This document shows, in pieces, positions 1,272 to 15,115 of a stretch of DNA of 28,508 nucleotides. Made by a program: the position numbers and the translations under genes. The notes beneath the pieces were generated by a model. The model did not search any database, was not told where the DNA came from, and worked only from the letters and a program-made list of their open reading frames with translations. The stretch comes from an uncultured Candidatus Saccharimonas sp. (GTDB taxonomy: Bacteria > Patescibacteriota > Saccharimonadia > Saccharimonadales > Saccharimonadaceae). The stretch is taken from contig CAZCIE010000002.1 in NCBI GenBank assembly GCA_964498955.1, positions 1-28,508 on the forward strand. Direction: 5' to 3'. Every line of letters begins with the position of its first letter. The stretch's first letter is position 1.

Positions 1272-2282
1272 ATGCAAAATATTGAAGATGTTCGAAGTGA
1301 CTTGATAAAGAAAATTAATGTTAGCGATAATCCTCGTGAACTATTAAAGTCGCCAGAATTAAAACAACTCTACGGGGCAATTACTACTTTGCCGATCGAA
1401 GATCGAGGCTCATACGGAAAGCAAATCAATGAACTAAAGATTGACTTGAATGTTTATATTGATAAAAGAGAGCAGGAGCTACAAGATTCTGAGATTGAAG
1501 CAATCGACATAACTGCGCCTTGGGATATTAATTCTGAGAAACCCGCGCTGTTGCCAGTTGAAAGCGGATCTTTGCACCCATTAATGACAGAACTCGAGAA
1601 CGTTATCGATATATTTACTAGAATGGGGTTTGAGGCAATTGAGTCAAGGCAGCTAGATGACGATGACCATATGTTTGGTACGCTAAATTTTCCAGACAAT
1701 CATCCAGCAAGGGACGGCTACGATACTTTTAGGACAGAGGAAGGCTTTATATCCCCAGCTCATACATCGACAATGCAAAACCGTATATTGAAAAGCGGCA
1801 AAGCAAAACTAGAAGCTGGCGGCCAAATTGCTGCCATTAGTTACGGCAGGGTATTTCGAAATGAGGATATTGATGCTACCCATGAACATACGTTTTATCA
1901 GTATGAAGGTGTTTTTGTTAGTTCAGACGCATCGCTTGGCCAGATGATAGGGACGTTGCGTAATTTTTTTGAATCTTATTACGGACAAAAAATATTAACC
2001 AAAACACAGCCGGCATATTTTCCATTTGTTGAACCAGGATTAGAATTTGTAATTGAAAAACCAGCAGTAATTGGCGGAAAACCAGGAGATTGGCTTGAGA
2101 TGCTGGGATGTGGTATGATCCATCCAAATGTTTTAAGCGCTGCGGGTATAGACCCAGCAAAATACCGAGGTTTTGCCTGGGGTGGTGGAATTGAACGATT
2201 AGTTATGTTGAAATATGGCATCGAGGACATCCGCAACTTTGAATCAGGGAAGCTTTCATTTATGAGGGAGTTTATATGCTAG
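1272..2282 (+). CDS. pheS: Phenylalanine-tRNA ligase alpha subunit
   Basis: SLHP, NFPDNHPARD, GRVFRNEDIDATH, YFPFVEPG, EMLGCGM and FAWGGGIERLVM class II aaRS motifs. Confidence 0.98.
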   Translation: MQNIEDVRSDLIKKINVSDNPRELLKSPELKQLYGAITTLPIEDRGSYGKQINELKIDLNVYIDKREQELQDSEIEAIDITAPWDINSEKPALLPVESGSLHPLMTELENVIDIFTRMGFEAIESRQLDDDDHMFGTLNFPDNHPARDGYDTFRTEEGFISPAHTSTMQNRILKSGKAKLEAGGQIAAISYGRVFRNEDIDATHEHTFYQYEGVFVSSDASLGQMIGTLRNFFESYYGQKILTKTQPAYFPFVEPGLEFVIEKPAVIGGKPGDWLEMLGCGMIHPNVLSAAGIDPAKYRGFAWGGGIERLVMLKYGIEDIRNFESGKLSFMREFIC

Positions 2283-4765
2283 TATCATTAAATTGGTTAA
2301 AGAAATTTGTTGATATTGACGTATCGGCCCAGCAGTTAAAAGTTTTAATTGGTTCACGATTGGTTGAAGTCGAAAATATTGTTGATATTGGTCAAAAGTA
2401 CAAGGACGTAGTTATAGTAAAAGTGATTGAATCTAGTAAAATGGAAGGTTCTGACCACTTAAGTGTAATAAAAATCGATGATAATGGCGTCGTCTCAGAC
2501 ATCGAACGAGACGAAAAAGACTTGGTCCAGGTTGTTTGTGGTGCACCAAACATGAGAGCAGGAATAACAGTCGCATGGCTACCTCCAAAATCGGTCGTGC
2601 CTGACACATACGGCACTGCCGACCCATTTGTATTAGACGCCAGGAAACTACGTGGAGTAATGAGCAATGGCATGATTGCTAGCGCAAAAGAGCTCGACAT
2701 ATCAGACGACAATGAAGGAATACTTGAGATTGATGAATCTGTGGGCGCAGGTGTATCATTTGCTAAACAGTATGAGCTGGATGACTATTTGTTTGATATC
2801 GAAAATAAATCATTAACCAGCCGGCCTGATTGTTTTGGTATCATAGGCTTTGCTCGAGAAGTATCGGCGATATTAGGAAAAAAATTTACAAATCCTGATT
2901 GGTTTTTAAACACAAACATACAAGACGTAGGTCAATCTCGTGACACTCCCATTAATGTGACTATCGAAGATGAGACTCTTTCTTCTCGCTATTTGGCAGT
3001 TGTCATGGACGGCATTTCGGTCTTGAAGCAGTCGACTTTAATTATTCAAACTTATTTATCGCGTATGGGCGTAAGGCCAATTAATGCAATTGTTGATGTA
3101 ACAAATTACTTAATGTTATTAACTGGTCAGCCGCTTCATGCTTTTGATTATGATAAATTGGTAAATCTATGCGGCGAGGTTATTAATATCCATGTACGTT
3201 TAGGGAAAGAAGGCGAAAAACTTGAACTTCTTGATGGAAAGACAATTGAACTTTCGACTGAGGATATCGTAATCTCAGCTGGTAAAAATGCGATAGCCCT
3301 AGCCGGAGCAATGGGTGGTTTAAATACTACAATTGACGAAAATACTAAAAGAATTGTCATTGAAAGTGCTTCATTTGACCTTTACCGTTTACGTGCGACT
3401 CAGATGAGGCATGGGATATTTAGTGAGGCTATAACACGATTTACAAAAGGTCAGACCGCTGGCTTAACGGCGCCGGTAATAGGACAGGCGACTCAAATGA
3501 TTTCAGAACTTACAGGTGCAAAATGTGCTAGCCCAATTGCTGAAGATTACCCGGTTGTCCAGTTACCAATTAAAATTGACCTTGACGTATCAAAGATTAA
3601 TACAGTTCTTGGTAGCAACTTTGAAAAGGATACAGTACAAAAAGTTCTTGAAAATGTAGGTTTTTCTATTACTCATAAAATTAGTGGACTAATGACGACA
3701 ACTGTGCCATATTTTAGAAGTGACGTTCATATCCTTGAGGATATTATTGAAGAGGTTGGACGTATTGCTGGCTTTGATAATATTAAACCAACGTTACCGG
3801 TTCGTGAATGCATTGGCGTTAAGCCAGACGATTTTGATATTTTTAGGTCAAATCTTCGAAGGACTTTAGCGAAAGCTGGTGCAAACGAAGTACTGTCGTA
3901 TAGTTTCGTGAATGCTGATAATATTAAAAAAGCAGGTCAGGATCTAACAAACTCTTATCGAATAATCAATTCAATTAGTCCTGATCTTCAATATTACAGA
4001 CAATCATTATCTCCGAATCTTTTGGGATTCGCATATTCAAATGTGAAACAAGGATACGACAACTTTGCATTATTCGAGATTAATAAAGTCCATCAAAAGG
4101 ATATTGGTTTAAATGATGAAAGTGTGCCAAATGAGATAGAATCGCTTGCTTTGGTAATTACAAATAAAAACCCAGGGTCTGGTGCTGCATATTACCGAGC
4201 AAAAAGATTACTTGACATGTTGTCCAAGACGGCTGCGGTCGACTTAGTATACGAGACAATAGAAGAGGGCTGCAATGACCCATCGGCAGTAATTTTTGAC
4301 CCAAATAGGTCGGCGAAAGTTATTAACAAATTAACCAATGCAATAGTTGGTTATGTAGGAGAGTATAAAAAATCTGTCATTAATGGGTTCAAGATTCCAG
4401 AATATAGTTCAGGTTTCGAAATAAATTCAAGGACATTGTTTGTGCCAACAAACAAGATAATTAGCTCATATTCACATATGAGTAAATATCCTGGCACGGA
4501 AAGAGATATGTGTTTTAAGGTAGCTGACGATATTTGCTATAATCAGGTCAATGATGCGATTTACCGAGTATTGTCAAAGACAAATTACAAAACAGAGGTT
4601 CTACCGGTCGATATTTATAAGCAGCTTGAAACAACTACGAAAAATATTACGGTTCGTGTAAAAATTACGGCGTTTGACCATACACTAACCAGAGATGAAA
4701 TTGCTGAAGTTATAGATAATGTCTGCAAGTCAGTAATATCAGCAACAAATGCCGTTATTGTTTGA
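2276..4765 (+). CDS. pheT: Phenylalanine-tRNA ligase beta subunit
   Basis: MLVSLNWLK start, VVCGAPN tRNA-binding OB fold, SRPDCFGIIGFARE, B3/4 domain, DILEEVGR-like motif (DIIEEVGR) and C-terminal YPGTERD ferredoxin-like domain. Overlaps pheS. Confidence 0.98.
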   Translation: MLVSLNWLKKFVDIDVSAQQLKVLIGSRLVEVENIVDIGQKYKDVVIVKVIESSKMEGSDHLSVIKIDDNGVVSDIERDEKDLVQVVCGAPNMRAGITVAWLPPKSVVPDTYGTADPFVLDARKLRGVMSNGMIASAKELDISDDNEGILEIDESVGAGVSFAKQYELDDYLFDIENKSLTSRPDCFGIIGFAREVSAILGKKFTNPDWFLNTNIQDVGQSRDTPINVTIEDETLSSRYLAVVMDGISVLKQSTLIIQTYLSRMGVRPINAIVDVTNYLMLLTGQPLHAFDYDKLVNLCGEVINIHVRLGKEGEKLELLDGKTIELSTEDIVISAGKNAIALAGAMGGLNTTIDENTKRIVIESASFDLYRLRATQMRHGIFSEAITRFTKGQTAGLTAPVIGQATQMISELTGAKCASPIAEDYPVVQLPIKIDLDVSKINTVLGSNFEKDTVQKVLENVGFSITHKISGLMTTTVPYFRSDVHILEDIIEEVGRIAGFDNIKPTLPVRECIGVKPDDFDIFRSNLRRTLAKAGANEVLSYSFVNADNIKKAGQDLTNSYRIINSISPDLQYYRQSLSPNLLGFAYSNVKQGYDNFALFEINKVHQKDIGLNDESVPNEIESLALVITNKNPGSGAAYYRAKRLLDMLSKTAAVDLVYETIEEGCNDPSAVIFDPNRSAKVINKLTNAIVGYVGEYKKSVINGFKIPEYSSGFEINSRTLFVPTNKIISSYSHMSKYPGTERDMCFKVADDICYNQVNDAIYRVLSKTNYKTEVLPVDIYKQLETTTKNITVRVKITAFDHTLTRDEIAEVIDNVCKSVISATNAVIV

Positions 4766-6863: not shown

Positions 6864-8336
6864 CTACTCGTTTTCTTTTAATTGACTGCGTAATTTATTT
6901 TTTGCATGAGTTGTAGTGACTAAATCTAGCCAACCATGTTTAGGCATGGATTGTTTTCGTGTTATTACTTCAATAACGTCACCGTCAGCAAGTGATTTAT
7001 TAAAAGAATGGATCTTTCCATTAACGCGAAAACTGTAAGCATGCATAGCAATGTCGCTATGAACTAAGTATGCAAAATCAAGTGGCAAAGACCCTTCTGG
7101 TAAGTTAAAAATATCGCCTTTTGGGGAATAGACAAATATTCGGCTTTTAAATAGGTCAATATTTAATTGATCTTTTGATATTTCTTCTCCTTCTTTTAAT
7201 TTAGCAGCGATTTCTTGTAATTGAGTAATCCATTGCATATTTGCTGGCAAAGTTGAGGTACCGGTTTTATTGATATATTCTTTTGAAGATTTTTGTTCAT
7301 TGTAATGGAAGCTAGCTGCTAGCCCTCGTTCGGCAAATTCATGCATATCATGAGTCCTAATTTGAAATTCGACAATTTGTTTTGTGGGCGTGATAACTGT
7401 TGTATGAAGACTTTGATAACCATTTGGTTTTGGCGCAGCTATGTAGTCTTTGATACGACTTATCATTGGCTGATAAAGGCTATGAACAACACCAAGTGCA
7501 CGGTAACAATCATCTTTATCATTAACAAGAATTCTTAAAGCAATTAGATCATAAATATCGTTAATGTTGCCACCAACTTTTGCTAATTTTCGATATAAAC
7601 TGTAGGCACTTTTCACCCGTCCGTTAATTTCGGAATTGACGTTTTGTTTTTGTAACTCTTTTTCGACTTCAAGTCGAATTACCCCAAGTTTTCGAGCACT
7701 TTTGCCAAGACGTTTTTTTATCATTATTTCGGTTTTTTTATATTCTGCAGGGTCAAGAAAGCTAAAGGCTAGTTCTTCAATTTGGACACGAACTCGACCC
7801 ATACCAAGTCTGTCGGCCATCGGTCCAAAGACTTCTAGTGACTCGCGAGCAATTTTTAACTGTTTTTCAACAGGTAAAAACTGTAAAGTTTGTAAGTTAT
7901 GTAACCTGTCGGCAAGTTTGATTATTATTACTCGTATGTCTTGGCCGACAGCTATTAATAATTTTGATAAATTATCTTTAGTTTTTGGCAAATAACCTGA
8001 CAGGTCTTTCATACCGGACCTGGCCTTTGAGACCTTTGTAACCCCATCAACTAAAAAGGCCACATCGTGGCCAAAAACGCTCTCAATTTTTTCCAGACGG
8101 AGGCCAGTGTCTTCGACTGTATCGTGTAGTACCCCTGCTATAATGCTATCAATATCCATACCCCAAGAGATTAAAGTGTTAGCCACAGCAATAGGGTGGG
8201 TGATATATGGATCACCATTGGCTCGTTTTTGATTTGAATGGGCTTCAGTTGCGATGTCAATAGCATTACTAAATTTTAGTATTTGATTCTTTTTATAGTA
8301 TGGTTTGGCTTCGTTTAGTAGTCCAACTTTGTCCAT
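6864..8336 (-). CDS. rel: RelA/SpoT-family bifunctional (p)ppGpp synthetase/hydrolase with HD, synthetase and TGS domains only
   Basis: PYITHP, LHDTVED, KLADRLHN, GRVK, RIKDY, NGYQSLHT, EFQIRT and TGS domain (YSPKGD...DFAYLVH). Confidence 0.95.
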   Translation of the reverse strand: MDKVGLLNEAKPYYKKNQILKFSNAIDIATEAHSNQKRANGDPYITHPIAVANTLISWGMDIDSIIAGVLHDTVEDTGLRLEKIESVFGHDVAFLVDGVTKVSKARSGMKDLSGYLPKTKDNLSKLLIAVGQDIRVIIIKLADRLHNLQTLQFLPVEKQLKIARESLEVFGPMADRLGMGRVRVQIEELAFSFLDPAEYKKTEIMIKKRLGKSARKLGVIRLEVEKELQKQNVNSEINGRVKSAYSLYRKLAKVGGNINDIYDLIALRILVNDKDDCYRALGVVHSLYQPMISRIKDYIAAPKPNGYQSLHTTVITPTKQIVEFQIRTHDMHEFAERGLAASFHYNEQKSSKEYINKTGTSTLPANMQWITQLQEIAAKLKEGEEISKDQLNIDLFKSRIFVYSPKGDIFNLPEGSLPLDFAYLVHSDIAMHAYSFRVNGKIHSFNKSLADGDVIEVITRKQSMPKHGWLDLVTTTHAKNKLRSQLKENE

Positions 8337-8386: not shown

Positions 8387-8415
8387 TTGATAACTTGCCA
8401 CATTACGCTTATACT
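8387..8415 (+). promoter_or_regulatory. Sigma70 promoter for the sugar-phosphate operon (probably leaderless)
   Basis: TTGATA (8387-8392), 17 nt, TATACT (8410-8415), 8 nt, ATG. Confidence 0.65.
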
Positions 8416-8423
8416 TAAACTAT

Positions 8424-8876
8424 ATGAAAATATATCTTGGAAGCGATCACCTGGGTTTCTATTTAAAAGAAAAGATTTTTGTATATTTAGCTAAACATGG
8501 GTATGATGTCGAAGACATTGGTGGTCAGACACTCAACCCTAGCGACGACTTTCCTGAATTTGCTCAATCGGTTGCGTTCAAGATTATTAGCGATGAAGAC
8601 TCTGACCCAAGAGGAATTTTGCTTTGTGGCGGAGGTCAGGGTATGGCTATCGCTGCAAATCGATTTAAGGGTATTCGAGCAACTGTAATTTGGGATGCTT
8701 ATGAGGCTAAAATGGCAAGAAATGATAATGACAGCAATGTTCTTTGTTTACCTTCGCGAATTCTTGAGGATGACGACAAGGCTTGGCAAGGTATTGTCGA
8801 GACTTGGCTAAATACACCATTTGCTGATGCTATTAGATATAGACGCCGAAACGCTCAAATGGATGAATTATCATGA
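8424..8876 (+). CDS. rpiB: RpiB/LacA/LacB family sugar-phosphate isomerase
   Basis: GSDHLG, GILLCGGGQGMAIAANRFKGIRA and NDSNVLCL motifs. Confidence 0.9.
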   Translation: MKIYLGSDHLGFYLKEKIFVYLAKHGYDVEDIGGQTLNPSDDFPEFAQSVAFKIISDEDSDPRGILLCGGGQGMAIAANRFKGIRATVIWDAYEAKMARNDNDSNVLCLPSRILEDDDKAWQGIVETWLNTPFADAIRYRRRNAQMDELS

Positions 8877-9517
8877 GTATTATTGCGCCTTGTATTACTG
8901 TCGAGACAGAGGAAGAGTATAAATTATTAGTTGAGAAATATCAAAAATTTGCTCAGCGTGTTCAAGTTGATATAAGTGATGGAAAATTTGCACCCGTATT
9001 TTTGTTATCTATTGAAAAAGTTTGGTGGCCGAAAGAATGGATGGTTGATATTCATGCAATGGTTTCAAACCCGGCAGAATATTTGGACGAAATAATATCT
9101 AAAAAACCACATTTAATTATTTTACATGCCGAGACCGGAATTGACTTGAAGCCATTAATAGAGAAAATTCATAAATATGGCATTAAGGCAGGTGTAGCAT
9201 TACTAAAAACTACTGTACCAGATATGATTTCTTCTGTAATTAAAATAGTTGACCATGTCTTAGTTTTTTCAGGTGATCTGGGCCATTATGGGGGCAGGGC
9301 AAGTTTAATGCAGCTTGAAAAAGTCCGATTAATCAAAGCGATTAACCCAAACGTTGAAGTAGGATGGGATGGAGGAATAAGTCTTGATAATGCTTTTACT
9401 CTGTCGCAAGGTGGTGTAAATGTGCTTAATGTTGGCGGTGTGTTAGCCAAATCTGACGACCCAATAACTGTTTTCAATAAGTTAATTGTTGAGATAAATA
9501 AACAGGGAGTGATATAG
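8873..9517 (+). CDS. rpe: Ribulose-phosphate 3-epimerase family
   Basis: DISDGKF, DIHAMV, ILHAE, WDGGI and NVGG motifs. ATGA overlap with rpiB. Confidence 0.88.
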   Translation: MSIIAPCITVETEEEYKLLVEKYQKFAQRVQVDISDGKFAPVFLLSIEKVWWPKEWMVDIHAMVSNPAEYLDEIISKKPHLIILHAETGIDLKPLIEKIHKYGIKAGVALLKTTVPDMISSVIKIVDHVLVFSGDLGHYGGRASLMQLEKVRLIKAINPNVEVGWDGGISLDNAFTLSQGGVNVLNVGGVLAKSDDPITVFNKLIVEINKQGVI

Positions 9518-9521
9518 CTAA

Positions 9522-10385
9522 ATGAGTAATACTCTATCTTTAATTCAGTTGCAACAAAAAGCAAACGTTGTTCGGGAAGATATTATTAAAATGCTTGAGA
9601 ATGCCGGTAGTGGACATAGCGCTGGCTCACTTGGGTTGGCAGATATTGTCACTGCATTATATTTCAATATTATGAACATCGATCCTAAAAATCCTACTTG
9701 GCCAGATCGTGACATCTTTATCCTTAGTAATGGGCACACTGTACCAGTGCAATATGCAGCAATGGCCGAGGCAGGTTTTTTTGATAAAGATGAGCTTAAA
9801 ACATTACGCAAATTAGGTAGTAGACTTCAGGGTCACCCAGAGCGCGACCGTTTACCTGGACTTGAAAACACCAGTGGCCCACTTGGGTCAGGGCTTTCTC
9901 AGGCTGCTGGCTATGCATACTCATTGCAATATTTGGATAATATAAAGCATCGATTTGTTTATGTAATCATGGGCGACGGAGAACTAGACGAAGGAAACGT
10001 CTGGGAGGCCGCGATGTTTGCAGGTAAATATAAGCTGTCACAGTTGGTAGCAATAATTGACCGTAATAATATTCAAATTGACGGCAACACAGAGGATGTT
10101 ATGCCACTTGAAGATTTGCACAGTAAATGGGAATCATTTGGTTGGCACGTGATTGAAGTTGATGGCCATAATATAGAAAGTATTATTGACGCTACTAGCA
10201 CGGCTCGCGCGATTACAAATCGTCCAAGTGTCATAATTGCTCATACAATCCCTGGTAAAGGAGTTGATTTTATGGAATATGATTATAAATGGCATGGCAT
10301 TGCGCCAAATAGTGATCAAGCTAAAGACGCATTACAAAAACTACAAACACTTAATGGGAAAATAACACCAGGAGATAAATCTTAA
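9522..10385 (+). CDS. tkt: Transketolase, N-terminal (TPP-binding) subunit
   Basis: SGHSAGSLG, RDIFILSNGH, LQGHP, SGPLGSGLS, MGDGELDEG..WE TPP motif and TIPGKG. Confidence 0.95.
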   Translation: MSNTLSLIQLQQKANVVREDIIKMLENAGSGHSAGSLGLADIVTALYFNIMNIDPKNPTWPDRDIFILSNGHTVPVQYAAMAEAGFFDKDELKTLRKLGSRLQGHPERDRLPGLENTSGPLGSGLSQAAGYAYSLQYLDNIKHRFVYVIMGDGELDEGNVWEAAMFAGKYKLSQLVAIIDRNNIQIDGNTEDVMPLEDLHSKWESFGWHVIEVDGHNIESIIDATSTARAITNRPSVIIAHTIPGKGVDFMEYDYKWHGIAPNSDQAKDALQKLQTLNGKITPGDKS

Positions 10386-11383
10386 TGAACGAATATTACT
10401 TAAATCAGAAAGTTTTTGATGATGATGTCCTGCAAGAACCGATTCGACTTGGTTTTGGGCGTGGTTTATTGTCTGTTGGTTCGGATGATAATCGCATAGT
10501 GGCATTATGCGCTGATTTGACTGAAAGTACACAGGTAAATCTTTTTAGTGAAAAATTTCCAGAAAGATTTATTGAAGTTGGTATTGCTGAACAAAACTTG
10601 GTGGCAGTTGCCAGCGGCTTGGCACATGCCGGTAAGATTCCATTTGCGAGTAGCTATGCGGCATTTAATCCAGGCCGTGACTGGGAGCAAATTAAAACAA
10701 CAGTATGCTTAAATGACCAACCTGTGAAAATTATTGGTTGTCATGCAGGAATTGGGGTTGGCCCAGATGGTGCTACTCATCAGATGTTAGAAGATATTGC
10801 ATTAATGCGAGTATTACCAAATATGGTCGTAATTGCGCCTGGCGACAGTATTGAGGCTGAAAAAGCGACAAAAGCAATTGCGTTTAATGGTCTACCATCG
10901 TATTTAAGGCTTGCTCGACCAAAAACTCCGGTTTTCAGTACAAATGAATCGCCTTTTGAGATTGGAAAAGCCTATGTGTTACGTAACGGGGCTGACGTTA
11001 GTTTGTTTGGCACGGGTGCAATGACATATCAATTATTGGTTGCTGCAAATATTTTGGAAACAATTGGGATAAACGCCGAAGTAGTTCATGTCCCAACAAT
11101 AAAACCTCTTGACGAGGAAACTATACTGGCAAGCGCAAGAAAAACTGGGCGAGTTGTATCAGCCGAAGAAGCTCAAATTTCTGGTGGCTTTGGTGGTGCA
11201 ATAGCCGAGTTGCTTTCAGAAAAGCTGCCAACACCTTTGCTGAGGTTTGGTATATTTAATAGGTTCGGTGAAAGTGGCGAACCAATAGAATTGTTTGAAT
11301 ATTTTGGATTGACAGGAGATAAAATTGCAAAAAAGGTCCAAGAATATATCAGCAATACACCACAATACCATAGGGAATATTAA
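10385..11383 (+). CDS. tkt: Transketolase, C-terminal (pyrimidine-binding) subunit
   Basis: ADLTES, EVGIAEQN, GPDGATHQMLED, YLRLAR and TIKPLD. TAATG coupling to the N-terminal subunit. Confidence 0.95.
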   Translation: MNEYYLNQKVFDDDVLQEPIRLGFGRGLLSVGSDDNRIVALCADLTESTQVNLFSEKFPERFIEVGIAEQNLVAVASGLAHAGKIPFASSYAAFNPGRDWEQIKTTVCLNDQPVKIIGCHAGIGVGPDGATHQMLEDIALMRVLPNMVVIAPGDSIEAEKATKAIAFNGLPSYLRLARPKTPVFSTNESPFEIGKAYVLRNGADVSLFGTGAMTYQLLVAANILETIGINAEVVHVPTIKPLDEETILASARKTGRVVSAEEAQISGGFGGAIAELLSEKLPTPLLRFGIFNRFGESGEPIELFEYFGLTGDKIAKKVQEYISNTPQYHREY

Positions 11384-11392
11384 GGAGGAAAA

Positions 11393-12310
11393 ATGACATT
11401 ATCAATTAACCAAATTCGAGATAACAACATTAGAGCAAGACACTTGATGCAGCGTTCAAGAACTCAACATTTTGCTGTTGGAGCATTTAATATTGATAAT
11501 CAAGAGACTTTGATTGCAGTAGCTAGAGCTGCCCAAAAGTTAAATTCACCAGTAATGGTAGAGCTTAGCAAAAATGAAGTTGCGTCGCTTGGGCTCGAAA
11601 ATGTTCGCGACTTAGTAGATAATTACAAAGCTGAATATGGAATTGAAATGTACATAAACCTAGACCACAGCCCGACAGTTGATGATTGTAAGCGAGCTAT
11701 TGATGCAGGTTTTGAATTTATTCATATAGATATTAGCCAAGCTGATCATAATGCAACTCGAGAACAAATTGTTAAAAGTACTCAAGAAGTAGTTGAATAT
11801 GCAAAATTTACTGGAGCGATCGTCGAAAGCGAGCAACATTATTTTGGTGGTTCGTCAGATGTATTTGATACAGATATCGATTACGAAGAGGTTAAAAAGA
11901 CATTTACAAAACCAAATGACGCTAAAAAGTTTATTGAAGAAACTGGTATTGACACTTTTGCGGCTGCAGTAGGTAATTTGCATGGTAAATATAATGTTCC
12001 AAAAATTTTAGACCTTGAACTTTTACAAAAGATTAGGGATACGATTGATAAAAAAGTGTTTATTAGTTTACATGGTGGCAGCGATACGCCATTGCAGTAT
12101 TTTAAAGATGCAGTAAAAATTGGTGTAAGCAAAGTAAATGTAAATAGTGATTTGCGTTACACTTTCCGTACCACACTAGAAAAGGCGCTTGCCGAGAACC
12201 CTGATGAATATGCTGTAGTTAAATTAATGCCCCAAGTATACGAGGCGGTTCAGGCGGTCGTTGAAGAAAAAATAAGCGCGTTTAATAGCGCTGGTAAGGC
12301 AGTCGTATGA
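11393..12310 (+). CDS. fba: Class II fructose/tagatose-bisphosphate aldolase
   Basis: AVGAFNI, NLDH, VGNLHG, LHGGS and KVNVN Zn-aldolase motifs. SD AAGGAGG. Confidence 0.92.
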   Translation: MTLSINQIRDNNIRARHLMQRSRTQHFAVGAFNIDNQETLIAVARAAQKLNSPVMVELSKNEVASLGLENVRDLVDNYKAEYGIEMYINLDHSPTVDDCKRAIDAGFEFIHIDISQADHNATREQIVKSTQEVVEYAKFTGAIVESEQHYFGGSSDVFDTDIDYEEVKKTFTKPNDAKKFIEETGIDTFAAAVGNLHGKYNVPKILDLELLQKIRDTIDKKVFISLHGGSDTPLQYFKDAVKIGVSKVNVNSDLRYTFRTTLEKALAENPDEYAVVKLMPQVYEAVQAVVEEKISAFNSAGKAVV

Positions 12311-13275
12311 CACTAAAAATGCTTACTATTGGAGCGGCCGTTCAAGATGTTTTTTTAAGTAATAGCGATGAGTTTAAGCCTGTTACGGATATTCCTTCTC
12401 ATGAAGTGTTTTTAAAATTAGAGCTAGGGTCTAAGGCAGATGTAAATAATATTAATTTTAGCACGGGTGGTGGGGCTACAAATGCGGCTGTCACATTTGC
12501 GCGTCAAGGTATTGATGTCGAATTTATGGGCACAATTGCTGATGATCCTGCAGGTAGGGCGATATTAGATGAACTTGACAAAGAAAACGTCGGTACAAAG
12601 CACCTAAGTTATTCGAAGCGACACCATACGGGTTACTCGGTACTATTACTTGCTCCAAATGGTGAGCGAACAATACTAACTTATCGTGGTGCATCGACTC
12701 ATTATGATGCTAATAATTTTGATATTTCTAAGGTAGACGCACAGTGGTTGTATTTGTCAAGTATGGCTGGCGAAATGGCGTTGCTTGAAAACATTTTTTC
12801 AACCGCAAAAGAAAAGAAAATTAAGATATTCTTTAATCCTGGTAAAAACGAACTTAAAAATATCGACCAACTTAAGGCATTACTTGAAGATGTTGATGTG
12901 CTATTGGTTAATAAAGAAGAGGCAAAACAAATAGTCTCTGGTAATAGTTTAGTTGAACTAATACGACGATTAGAACATCTTGTCCCTGTGGCGATTATTA
13001 GTGATGGTCCAAATGGTGTGATTGCAAGTGACGGTAAGACTATTGTAAGAGCTGGAATGTACGAAGATGTCAAAGTGACAGATAGAACCGGCGCAGGAGA
13101 CGCTTTTGGGTCTGGATTTATTAGCTACTGGGCAAGCGGAAAATCGCTCAAAGATTCTATAGTATTTGCAAGTGCAAACTCGACATCTGTTGTGCAACAA
13201 ATTGGTGCCAAGGCAGGAATATTATATAAAGGCGCGAAGCTGCATGCAATGCCTCTTAACGAGGAGCCTTTTTAG
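12307..13275 (+). CDS. PfkB-family carbohydrate/nucleoside kinase
   Basis: GGGATNAA, GERT, VNKEE and DRTGAGDAFGSG PfkB signatures. ATGA overlap with fba. Confidence 0.92.
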   Translation: MTLKMLTIGAAVQDVFLSNSDEFKPVTDIPSHEVFLKLELGSKADVNNINFSTGGGATNAAVTFARQGIDVEFMGTIADDPAGRAILDELDKENVGTKHLSYSKRHHTGYSVLLLAPNGERTILTYRGASTHYDANNFDISKVDAQWLYLSSMAGEMALLENIFSTAKEKKIKIFFNPGKNELKNIDQLKALLEDVDVLLVNKEEAKQIVSGNSLVELIRRLEHLVPVAIISDGPNGVIASDGKTIVRAGMYEDVKVTDRTGAGDAFGSGFISYWASGKSLKDSIVFASANSTSVVQQIGAKAGILYKGAKLHAMPLNEEPF

Positions 13276-13289
13276 GCAAAAGATCAATC

Positions 13290-13820
13290 ATGGCTTATAT
13301 ACTACAGAAACTTTTGGGAATAAAAGACGATGAAACGTTGTTTGGTGATGGCATAAAAAAACTTGAAAAATCTGTTGGTATGAGCGGAGTTGATACGCGA
13401 TTAATTGCCGATATTATTACTAAATCTAATGATGTAACCCGTAAATTGGGCTTAAAGACAAATGACACGACTGGCAAAGAATTGTATTATTCGTTAATTG
13501 CGGCTGTTTGGAGTAGCGATGCCGAGACGATACTTAAAGACACCGACTACGTGTTAAAAATAATTGATAATAAAATTATATCTTTTAATCTTATTGATGT
13601 GATTGAAAATGCTCATCATGAACTTCCATATGGCAAGCAACATGTCTATCATGGGCGAATGAGTTTACGCGGTGAAATTGTGAATCGTTATTGTTCACAT
13701 ACACGTACGGATAATAAAACTACTTGCCAAGTCGCCAGTGAAATGGGTATTTTAACGGCTTCAGATGCGTGGTACACTATTAGTAAACATAACCATAATA
13801 AGTTGGAGAAGAAATCTTGA
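13290..13820 (+). CDS. Hypothetical soluble protein (176 aa)
   Basis: Long ORF in the operon orientation, overlapping the next gene (TTGA). No recognised motif. Confidence 0.8.
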   Translation: MAYILQKLLGIKDDETLFGDGIKKLEKSVGMSGVDTRLIADIITKSNDVTRKLGLKTNDTTGKELYYSLIAAVWSSDAETILKDTDYVLKIIDNKIISFNLIDVIENAHHELPYGKQHVYHGRMSLRGEIVNRYCSHTRTDNKTTCQVASEMGILTASDAWYTISKHNHNKLEKKS

Positions 13821-14425
13821 AGTATCAAATCTGTGTATCAGGGGCTGCTATCGGTGATACAGTTGAGGCATCACATCAGCTAGCATACGATTTAGGGAAA
13901 GCAATTGCAAAACAGGCGAAAACACTAACGACTGGTGCGACAGTTGGTTTGCCGTGGTGTGCCGCCAAAGGTGCATTTAGTGTTAAAAATAGGGTTGGTG
14001 CATGTGTTGGCTTTTCGCCAGCAAGTTCATTTAAGCAACATGTTGTTACATATAAACTACCGACTGTTGAGTTTGATTACATTAATTTTACTGGCCTTGA
14101 CTACGTTGGTCGTGATATTTATCTAATACGAAGTAGCGATGCTGTTATAACAGTTGGTGGAAGGATCGGCAGTTTGCATGAATTTACGACTGCACTTGAA
14201 GCCCAAAAAGTGATTGGGGTTTTACTTGGTAGTGGTGGTCTAGCAGATTATATCCCAGAATTAGTTACAAAAATTGATGTTCCTGGTGCTCGTGATATTA
14301 TTTATGACACTATTCCCGATAGACTAGTCAAAAAAGTAGTTGAAGCTCTTGATAAAAAATATGCTGGTTTTGAGCATGATGGTACCGACGATAATGTTAA
14401 AAGAAGGGTATCTCACAAGGGCTAG
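13817..14425 (+). CDS. SLOG/LOG-superfamily Rossmann-fold nucleotide-binding protein (TIGR00725-like)
   Basis: ICVSG, LGKAIA, TTGA..G, GR....RSSDAVITVGG..GSLHE and GVL.GSGG pattern. TTG start after GGAG (13805-13808). Confidence 0.82.
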   Translation: MKYQICVSGAAIGDTVEASHQLAYDLGKAIAKQAKTLTTGATVGLPWCAAKGAFSVKNRVGACVGFSPASSFKQHVVTYKLPTVEFDYINFTGLDYVGRDIYLIRSSDAVITVGGRIGSLHEFTTALEAQKVIGVLLGSGGLADYIPELVTKIDVPGARDIIYDTIPDRLVKKVVEALDKKYAGFEHDGTDDNVKRRVSHKG

Positions 14426-14449: not shown

Positions 14450-15115
14450 ATGTACAAAAAAAGTAAAATATCAAGCAAGGTAATTATAGCAATTGTAATT
14501 ATTTTAGTTGTGGCTGTTGTCGGTATATTTACTGCTATGGCGTTTAATAGCTCTGGGAAAGTTAAAGAACAGGATGCAGCCGACACAGAAGACGTTTTTG
14601 AGACTGAAGATATTGTTGATCAGGAAGAGGTAGCGGTGGAACCTGCTGCGAGCGAGGCAACAGAAAAGTCAGATGCGACTACAACCACTACTGCAACTAC
14701 GACGCCAACAACAAGCGCAAAAACTGGTAACGAGAATCTTCCAATTACGCAATGGGGAGTCACAGGATACTATAAGGGCCTACGTGCCGTTGATTATGAT
14801 GTAACCGCAAGCTCGAGTGTTCTGTTTGATTCAAGTGACATTACTTGCCCGGGCACTCGTATCTCTTCTTTAAGGCGATATCTTGGGACTGACGAGATAT
14901 ATAGTAATGTAGGGGAAGACGTTCTAGGTATTGCATCAGTTCTATACGCTACAGATAAGTTGAACGGTGTGGGAGGCTTAAATAAAAAAGTTGGGGATTA
15001 TTATTACGTATTTACAGGCCCACTACAACAATGTGCCGATTCTTCCCAGACAGAGATCCAGCAGCAAATTTACAGTGACCTAAAAGAATATTTTGCATCA
15101 CTAGTATTAATTTAG
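14450..15115 (+). CDS. Hypothetical membrane-anchored surface protein with acidic and Thr-rich linker
   Basis: Basic N-terminus, TM helix (VIIAIVIILVVAVVGIF), D/E-rich and poly-Thr stalk, and a C-terminal domain with two Cys. SD AAAGGA. Confidence 0.8.
   Translation: MYKKSKISSKVIIAIVIILVVAVVGIFTAMAFNSSGKVKEQDAADTEDVFETEDIVDQEEVAVEPAASEATEKSDATTTTTATTTPTTSAKTGNENLPITQWGVTGYYKGLRAVDYDVTASSSVLFDSSDITCPGTRISSLRRYLGTDEIYSNVGEDVLGIASVLYATDKLNGVGGLNKKVGDYYYVFTGPLQQCADSSQTEIQQQIYSDLKEYFASLVLI

Follow-up and report, generated by a model that had tools for sequence, protein, structure and literature searches.

The window analyzed here is a stretch of 28,508 nucleotides (nt) on contig CAZCIE010000002.1, from an uncultured Candidatus Saccharimonas sp. 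whose genome (G000) has an estimated completeness of 76%. Saccharibacteria are tiny bacteria living on other bacteria. Positions 8424–14425 of the window carry eight genes, from rpiB to a gene for a SLOG protein. The locus is an ancestral and conserved sugar-phosphate operon of the Saccharimonadales that is already known. The original prediction, made from the sequence alone, viewed it as a nucleotide-to-carbon module in which the SLOG protein splits nucleoside monophosphates (NMPs) into base and ribose 5-phosphate (R5P), which then enters lower glycolysis. The present analysis keeps SLOG as a candidate entry enzyme and places the exits from the pathway elsewhere. The features of the locus are as follows.

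8387–8415, + strand: promoter-like site, TTGATA-17-TATACT, 8 nt upstream of the rpiB start (consensus match only).
8424–8876, + strand: rpiB, ribose-5-phosphate isomerase B (PF02502, E 7e-41; NF004051 above cut-off).
8873–9517, + strand: rpe, a divergent ribulose-phosphate 3-epimerase (PF00834, E 2e-25; under the NCBIfam cut-offs).
9522–10385, + strand: tktN, transketolase N-terminal subunit (PF00456, E 3e-63).
10385–11383, + strand: tktC, transketolase C-terminal subunit (PF02779 and PF02780).
11393–12310, + strand: fba, class II ketose-bisphosphate aldolase (FBA; PF01116, E 5e-66), predicted to act on fructose 1,6-bisphosphate and sedoheptulose 1,7-bisphosphate (SBP).
12307–13275, + strand: pfkB, PfkB-family kinase, most likely a 1-kinase of fructose 6-phosphate (F6P) and sedoheptulose 7-phosphate (S7P) (PF00294; K43).
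13290–13820, + strand: 176-residue remnant of a Saccharimonadia protein of about 415 residues (no Pfam family).
13770–13778, + strand: internal extended -10 element TGGTACACT upstream of SLOG (motif).
13817–14425, + strand: SLOG cluster-4 protein, candidate NMP phosphoribohydrolase (PF18306, 91.6 bits; fold; residues).

The eight open reading frames (ORFs) are co-oriented and tightly packed at the positions first described, with successive gaps from rpiB to SLOG of -4, 4, -1, 9, -4, 14, and -4 nt. No convincing terminator separates the genes, also as described. The few forward-strand hairpin matches all fall within ORFs, and the hairpin total of the scan is about that of shuffled sequence. Tight spacing persists beyond SLOG, where a membrane protein of 221 residues follows after 24 nt and uvrB after a further 32 nt; the 3' boundary at 14425 is thus an arbitrary choice that no sequence feature marks. 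The promoter-like site upstream of rpiB is oriented divergently from relA. The promoter scan as a whole was near chance (36 vs. 29.3). The internal extended -10 element is probably real, as 15 of 35 related loci, almost all of the same genus, have a counterpart 33–54 nt upstream of the SLOG start. Since such counterparts recur, SLOG may have its own promoter in addition to read-through.

The SLOG protein belongs to SLOG cluster 4 (PF18306, LDcluster4), which it matches well above the cut-off of 26.3 bits, and is neither a classical LOG nor PpnN. Its scores are under the cut-offs of the LOG models TIGR00730 (19.9 vs. 96.35) and NF058542 (21.3 vs. 300) and under the curated cut-off of TIGR00725 (59.2 vs. 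106.9), and the Pfam search gave no match to the LOG family PF03641. The predicted structure is confident (pLDDT 91). Its nearest folds are TM1055 (1rcu) and the Moco carrier proteins (6y01 and 2iz7), with Z scores of 23.6–24.6 and root mean square deviations of 1.8–1.9; the Moco carriers alone score 23.6–24.2, which places the model among Moco-carrier-like folds. LOGs (Z about 20), PpnN (Z 18), and DprA (Z 16.6–18.8) follow. In line with the original prediction, the protein is not DprA-like, given the lower DprA scores and the lack of a PF02481 match.

The SLOG protein shares features with two groups of known proteins. With LOG and PpnN (PF03641, TIGR00730), a set that in a review extends to the archaeal GGGxGTxxE variant SiRe_0427, it has in common a Rossmann fold (Z about 18–20), an Arg and a Glu at equal spacing, and the products, base and R5P, that it is proposed to release. 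It differs from them in the missing PF03641 match, the motif GGRxGSLHE, the absence of alarmone domains, and its place in a pentose-phosphate operon. PpnN is alarmone-regulated. TM1055, the Moco carriers, and TIGR00725 provide the best Pfam, sequence, and fold matches, but the identity to TM1055 and the Moco carriers is only 23–29% and the TIGR00725 score is below the cut-off. No Moco context was noticed, although the molybdoenzymes of the genome were not searched for.

As predicted, R99 precedes the SDA strand, and the PGGxGTxxE motif is present as the variant VGGRIGSLHE, in which the GG, G, and E are kept but the full motif is not. In CgLOG, the catalytic pair R99/E122 has the same 23-residue spacing (PMC8234997). 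R99 and E122 of SLOG are invariant across 21 sequences and are also aligned with R241 and E264 of PpnN. The active sites of PaLOG and PpnN contain in addition a ribose-binding Glu, E74 and E223, respectively. Both LOG and PpnN require this third residue (10.1101/2025.04.13.648610). The original comparison overlooked it, and it is apparently Gln in the window copy. Among 120 close homologs, position 74 of SLOG is Glu in 118, Asp in one, and Gln solely in the window protein; it is Glu in the closest named relative. The position is matched to PpnN E223 by sequence register only, as the hhalign alignment with PpnN covered just the Arg-to-Glu stretch, and it is probably the third catalytic position. 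The window protein may be weakened by its private Glu-to-Gln change, but the conclusion for the family does not depend on Q74 in this copy. The gene is under purifying selection like its neighbors (dN 0.11, dS near saturation). By analogy with LOG and PpnN, the SLOG clade is a candidate for NMP hydrolysis with release of base and R5P. We found no paper that assigns a role to the LOG gene of this operon. A defense role is unsupported, as PADLOC gave no match for SLOG or for either form of the hypothetical protein encoded upstream.

Some Saccharimonadales carry a second cluster-4 SLOG paralog outside the operon (L046:6615-7148, L047:7165-7722, and L048:881-1420). In Southlakia epibionticum, the second copy is SEML1_0423, which adjoins a phosphoribosyltransferase-like gene.

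A search of 120 genomes of the order found a SLOG ortholog in 101. Where tktN and SLOG share a contig, SLOG lies 4–10 kb downstream on the same strand in 89 of 91 cases (hand count), in line with the synteny that was expected among relatives. The linkage extends to other classes. Among 77 transketolase-bearing Patescibacteria genomes outside the class, 22 from 11 families have a SLOG or LOG gene within 10 kb of tkt, compared with a roughly estimated chance expectation of 2–3, the genomes not being independent. The co-occurrence anticipated across CPR bacteria (Candidate Phyla Radiation) thus goes far beyond chance. Eighteen of these loci were read individually. One SLOG type, which accounts for many of the loci, has its gene between rpe and tktN; in one genome this type is fused to Rpe. 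In family f79, from another class, the Saccharimonadales-type SLOG comes after pfkB. Type-II LOGs adjoin tkt, tal, or gnd-zwf in other lineages, and in genus g20 a type-II LOG replaces the SLOG ortholog in place. In the tree, about four separate SLOG/LOG clades adjoin pentose-phosphate genes across Patescibacteria, and a single-clade origin is rejected (approximately unbiased test, p 5e-7, with PpnN as a long branch). Such repeated recruitment of separate clades points to a functional tie with the pentose-phosphate genes. The link exceeds inherited gene order.

An order-wide survey of 81 genomes found PRPP synthase (Prs) in 17, transaldolase in 2, and a PfkA-type phosphofructokinase (PFK) in 3. 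Because Prs is found in so few genomes, R5P is usually without an anabolic sink in the order, and the survey points to no alternative source of it. Transaldolase was not found in the 76% complete source genome, which encodes a kinase and FBA. This gene set resembles the SBP variant of the pentose-phosphate pathway's non-oxidative branch in cellulolytic clostridia, where a kinase and FBA remove S7P without transaldolase (PMC7029132). The clostridial kinase is a pyrophosphate-dependent PFK of the PfkA family, whereas the enzyme here is an ATP kinase of the PfkB family that would use S7P.

In three relatives the operon no longer contains tkt and fba but retains rpiB-rpe-pfkB-SLOG, and a phosphoketolase is encoded in each of these genomes. 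Two of them were read, G291 whole and G292 over about 624 kb. Neither contains tkt, tal, zwf, gnd, prs, deoABCD, or xylAB in the sequence read, and both carry a class I FBA. With tkt, tal, zwf, gnd, and prs absent, RpiB and Rpe could run only from R5P to xylulose 5-phosphate (X5P) in these two genomes. SLOG would be the obvious source of R5P, which a NUDIX enzyme or PfkB could supply instead.

Part of the genus and family carries a transaldolase gene in antisense orientation between fba and pfkB (L057:6115-7188, L049:7022-8104, L060, L061, L065, and L107). Three genomes with this insert also encode zwf.

The PfkB kinase displays the TGYS and GERT motifs and lacks the TRxN/RxN motif, as originally noted. 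It scores below the cut-offs of the phosphosugar kinase model TIGR03168 (52.6 vs. 216.4) and of the ribokinase model TIGR02152 (116.6 vs. 299.65), and reads GGGA where ribokinase has GGKG. K43 is invariant in both PfkB clades of the Saccharimonadales and is aligned with Lys27 of Pfk-2 and YihV; like these two enzymes, PfkB combines the in-trans lid lysine with a Gly in motif I. Lys27 of Pfk-2 and YihV touches the substrate phosphate or sulfonate and takes the place of the ribokinase XGKG lysine (PMC6429617, PMC8006165). A kinase for S7P and F6P is also needed by the route, because transaldolase is nearly always absent and S7P would otherwise be a dead end. Judged by these residues, the missing F6P/S7P kinase is a likelier role for PfkB than the free-sugar or nucleoside kinase that had been proposed. 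The fba slot is occupied by a class I gene in place of the class II gene in G035 and G039, a replacement that occurs in two families.

The second, divergent PfkB clade is fused to a short hypothetical protein in L057 (8196-9722) and four other congeners. Unfused, it fills the pfkB position across many further families.

S. epibionticum carries the same operon block, for which published transposon insertion sequencing is available (PMC10633639 Table S1). The gap-rpiB-rpe-tkt-fba-pfkB-LOG operon (SEML1_0546-0553; TM7x_02415/02420) has the same genes, order, and flanks as the window locus, which differs by lacking gap and by containing the 176-residue remnant. In TM7x, the pfkB gene adjoining fba was already predicted to encode PFK and is glucose-induced (PMC12815258). 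Between T0 and T2, normalized reads fall from 118 to 3.7 in rpiB, 295 to 10 in rpe, 815 to 46 in pfkB, 782 to 19 in fba, and 2847 to 508 in tktN, and rise from 8707 to 10621 in xfp and from 2084 to 3748 in LOG (PMC10633639 Table S1). Insertions are thus strongly depleted in rpiB, rpe, pfkB, fba, and tpi, mildly in tkt, and not in gap, xfp, or LOG (PMC10633639). No zwf, prs, or transaldolase is annotated in this species. The pattern fits a toxic build-up of sugar phosphates below the entry step, with two redundant exits for X5P. Since the ROK kinase and PGI/PMI are essential (PMC10633639), the input that S. epibionticum requires is hexose and not NMP. This requirement and the lack of a defect in the LOG mutant argue against NMPs as the main carbon source, another part of the original prediction.

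The source genome also bears on where the pentoses leave. Most relatives have gap ahead of rpiB, whereas the same junction, intact in G000, lacks it. GAPDH was found neither in this 76% complete genome nor in 11 of 20 congeners, six of which are more than 90% complete, and a search for a non-phosphorylating GAPDH of the GapN type (aldehyde dehydrogenase family) gave no candidate in G000 and four near-complete congeners. Matching the loss of gap, the PGK ORF spans only 201 residues (G000:C29:4380-4985) within an intact pyk-pgk-tpi run. These losses argue against the proposed routing into lower glycolysis in this organism. G000 encodes phosphoketolase (XFP), a ROK kinase, PGI/PMI, and the motifs of acetate kinase (AckA). 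As GAPDH was not found, pentose-derived ATP would come from acetyl-phosphate through phosphoketolase and acetate kinase.

The 176-residue gene corresponds to the conserved protein of about 415 residues minus some 260 central residues; it keeps about residues 1–75 and 338–400 and has a higher dN than its neighbors. The protein is absent in 24 of 80 related loci and is fused to the second PfkB in some congeners. With gap lost, the partner gene a remnant, and Glu74 of SLOG replaced by Gln, the pathway looks eroded in G000.

These data are best combined in a model in which SLOG would act as the pentose-phosphate entry enzyme and convert surplus or scavenged NMPs to base and R5P. RpiB and Rpe would convert R5P to X5P by established chemistry. 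X5P could leave through phosphoketolase and acetate kinase, encoded elsewhere in the genome, yielding acetyl-phosphate and ATP. Alternatively, transketolase would form S7P, PfkB would phosphorylate it to SBP, and FBA would cleave SBP, a route free of transaldolase. For glucose, PfkB and FBA would also supply the PFK step that is missing. The route would recycle or dispose of nucleotide ribose and would not be the main carbon supply. We judge the whole model, an R5P-releasing SLOG at the entry of an operon with two X5P exits, to be somewhat more probable than its negation. The broader proposal that independently recruited LOG and SLOG enzymes release R5P from host-derived NMPs, with exit by phosphoketolase or by a PfkB-driven SBP bypass, is held more tentatively and falls just short of an even chance. 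What survives of the nucleotide-to-carbon module is the Arg/Glu pair, the pentose-phosphate linkage, and the retention of rpiB-rpe-SLOG with phosphoketolase in tkt-less genomes. PfkB as a nucleoside or sugar kinase, lower glycolysis as the outlet in this organism, and NMPs as the main carbon source are not supported.

Several observations weigh against the model. On the side of SLOG, the NMP-hydrolase role is a prediction from residues and context. The same Arg and Glu also occur in the Moco carriers, so the pair is necessary yet does not discriminate for LOG activity. TM1055 and the Moco carriers also outrank the LOGs as nearest solved structures, the window copy has Q74, and the LOG mutant of S. 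epibionticum is neutral, albeit in the presence of a second SLOG. These fold matches, the missing PF03641 match, the degenerate motif, and the neutral mutant are what one would expect of a non-catalytic protein that binds nucleotides or sugar phosphates, either like a Moco carrier or as a sensor, and that has a regulatory or an accompanying part in the operon. This explanation is unlikely, as true type-II LOGs with the full motif take the place of SLOG in other lineages, and clade relatives (P0330 and P0320) occur as fusions with a beta-CASP nuclease and with a cytidine-type deaminase, fitting nucleotide processing.

On the side of the kinase, G291 keeps pfkB despite a canonical PFK, and some congeners have two PfkB clades. 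PfkB could instead phosphorylate nucleosides or ribose to NMP or R5P and form with SLOG a nucleoside-to-carbon module feeding lower glycolysis. The missing TRxN motif agrees with this, as do the top NCBIfam scores, to ribokinase and ribose-1-phosphate kinase (far under cut-off), the persistence of pfkB with rpiB-rpe-SLOG after the loss of tkt and class II fba, the separate PFK of G291, and the two clades, one of which could serve. However, K43 matches Lys27 of Pfk-2 and YihV and the ribokinase XGKG lysine is absent; a class I FBA has been gained by both tkt-less genomes read, of which G292 lacks any other PFK; the pfkB mutant resembles the fba mutant, unlike the LOG mutant; and GAPDH was not found in G000. 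We regard this alternative as improbable, but one of the two PfkB clades may still act on pentoses or nucleosides.

On the side of the linkage, no SLOG ortholog was found in 19 of the 120 genomes of the order, the operon being otherwise intact where read. Within the order, uvrB-gatCAB-dnaE is as syntenic as SLOG. Within-order synteny was rejected as stand-alone evidence, since unrelated neighbors are equally conserved. That SLOG is an unrelated passenger with its own promoter, a uvrB-linked house-cleaning enzyme for damaged nucleotides kept by conservation of gene order, would accord with the conserved ppa-to-dnaE block, the conserved internal -10 element, and the parting of SLOG from tkt in the rearranged family f40, but has little probability given the independent SLOG clades within rpe-tkt operons of other classes, away from uvrB and including the Rpe fusion, and the same SLOG clade after pfkB in family f79.

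The pentose-phosphate genes of CPR bacteria have been described as compensating for the lack of a PFK and as unable to serve nucleotide synthesis without PRPP synthase (PMC6031116, PMC7143001, PMC9530719). If the entry-enzyme model is true, these genes would have input, direction, and exit alike, provided by an R5P-releasing SLOG, a PfkB-type F6P/S7P kinase, and phosphoketolase. The model would answer the puzzle of cells with no PFK, no transaldolase, and no PRPP synthase, and explain why pentose enzymes are kept by cells seemingly unable to feed them otherwise. It would also mean a first catalytic function in this clade of SLOG cluster 4. The operon itself is known and the proposed chemistry is of a known type. 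The idea is directly testable in a genetically tractable species.

Three neighboring or partner proteins were also noted. The gene at 6864–8336, divergent from rpiB, encodes a short RelA/SpoT protein of 490 residues with HD, synthetase, and TGS domains. The membrane-anchored protein of 221 residues (14450–15115) contains a Thr-rich linker and is found between SLOG and uvrB in a few close relatives only. The full-length protein of about 415 residues gave no match in Pfam, the atlas, or Foldseek. The core of a full-length copy (L035:8438-9679) is modeled with confidence, and almost all of its weak structural matches are zincin-type metallopeptidases (best Z 6.2). A conserved HYxNE is located where zincins have HExxH, and the zincin-like match was not used for any reading.

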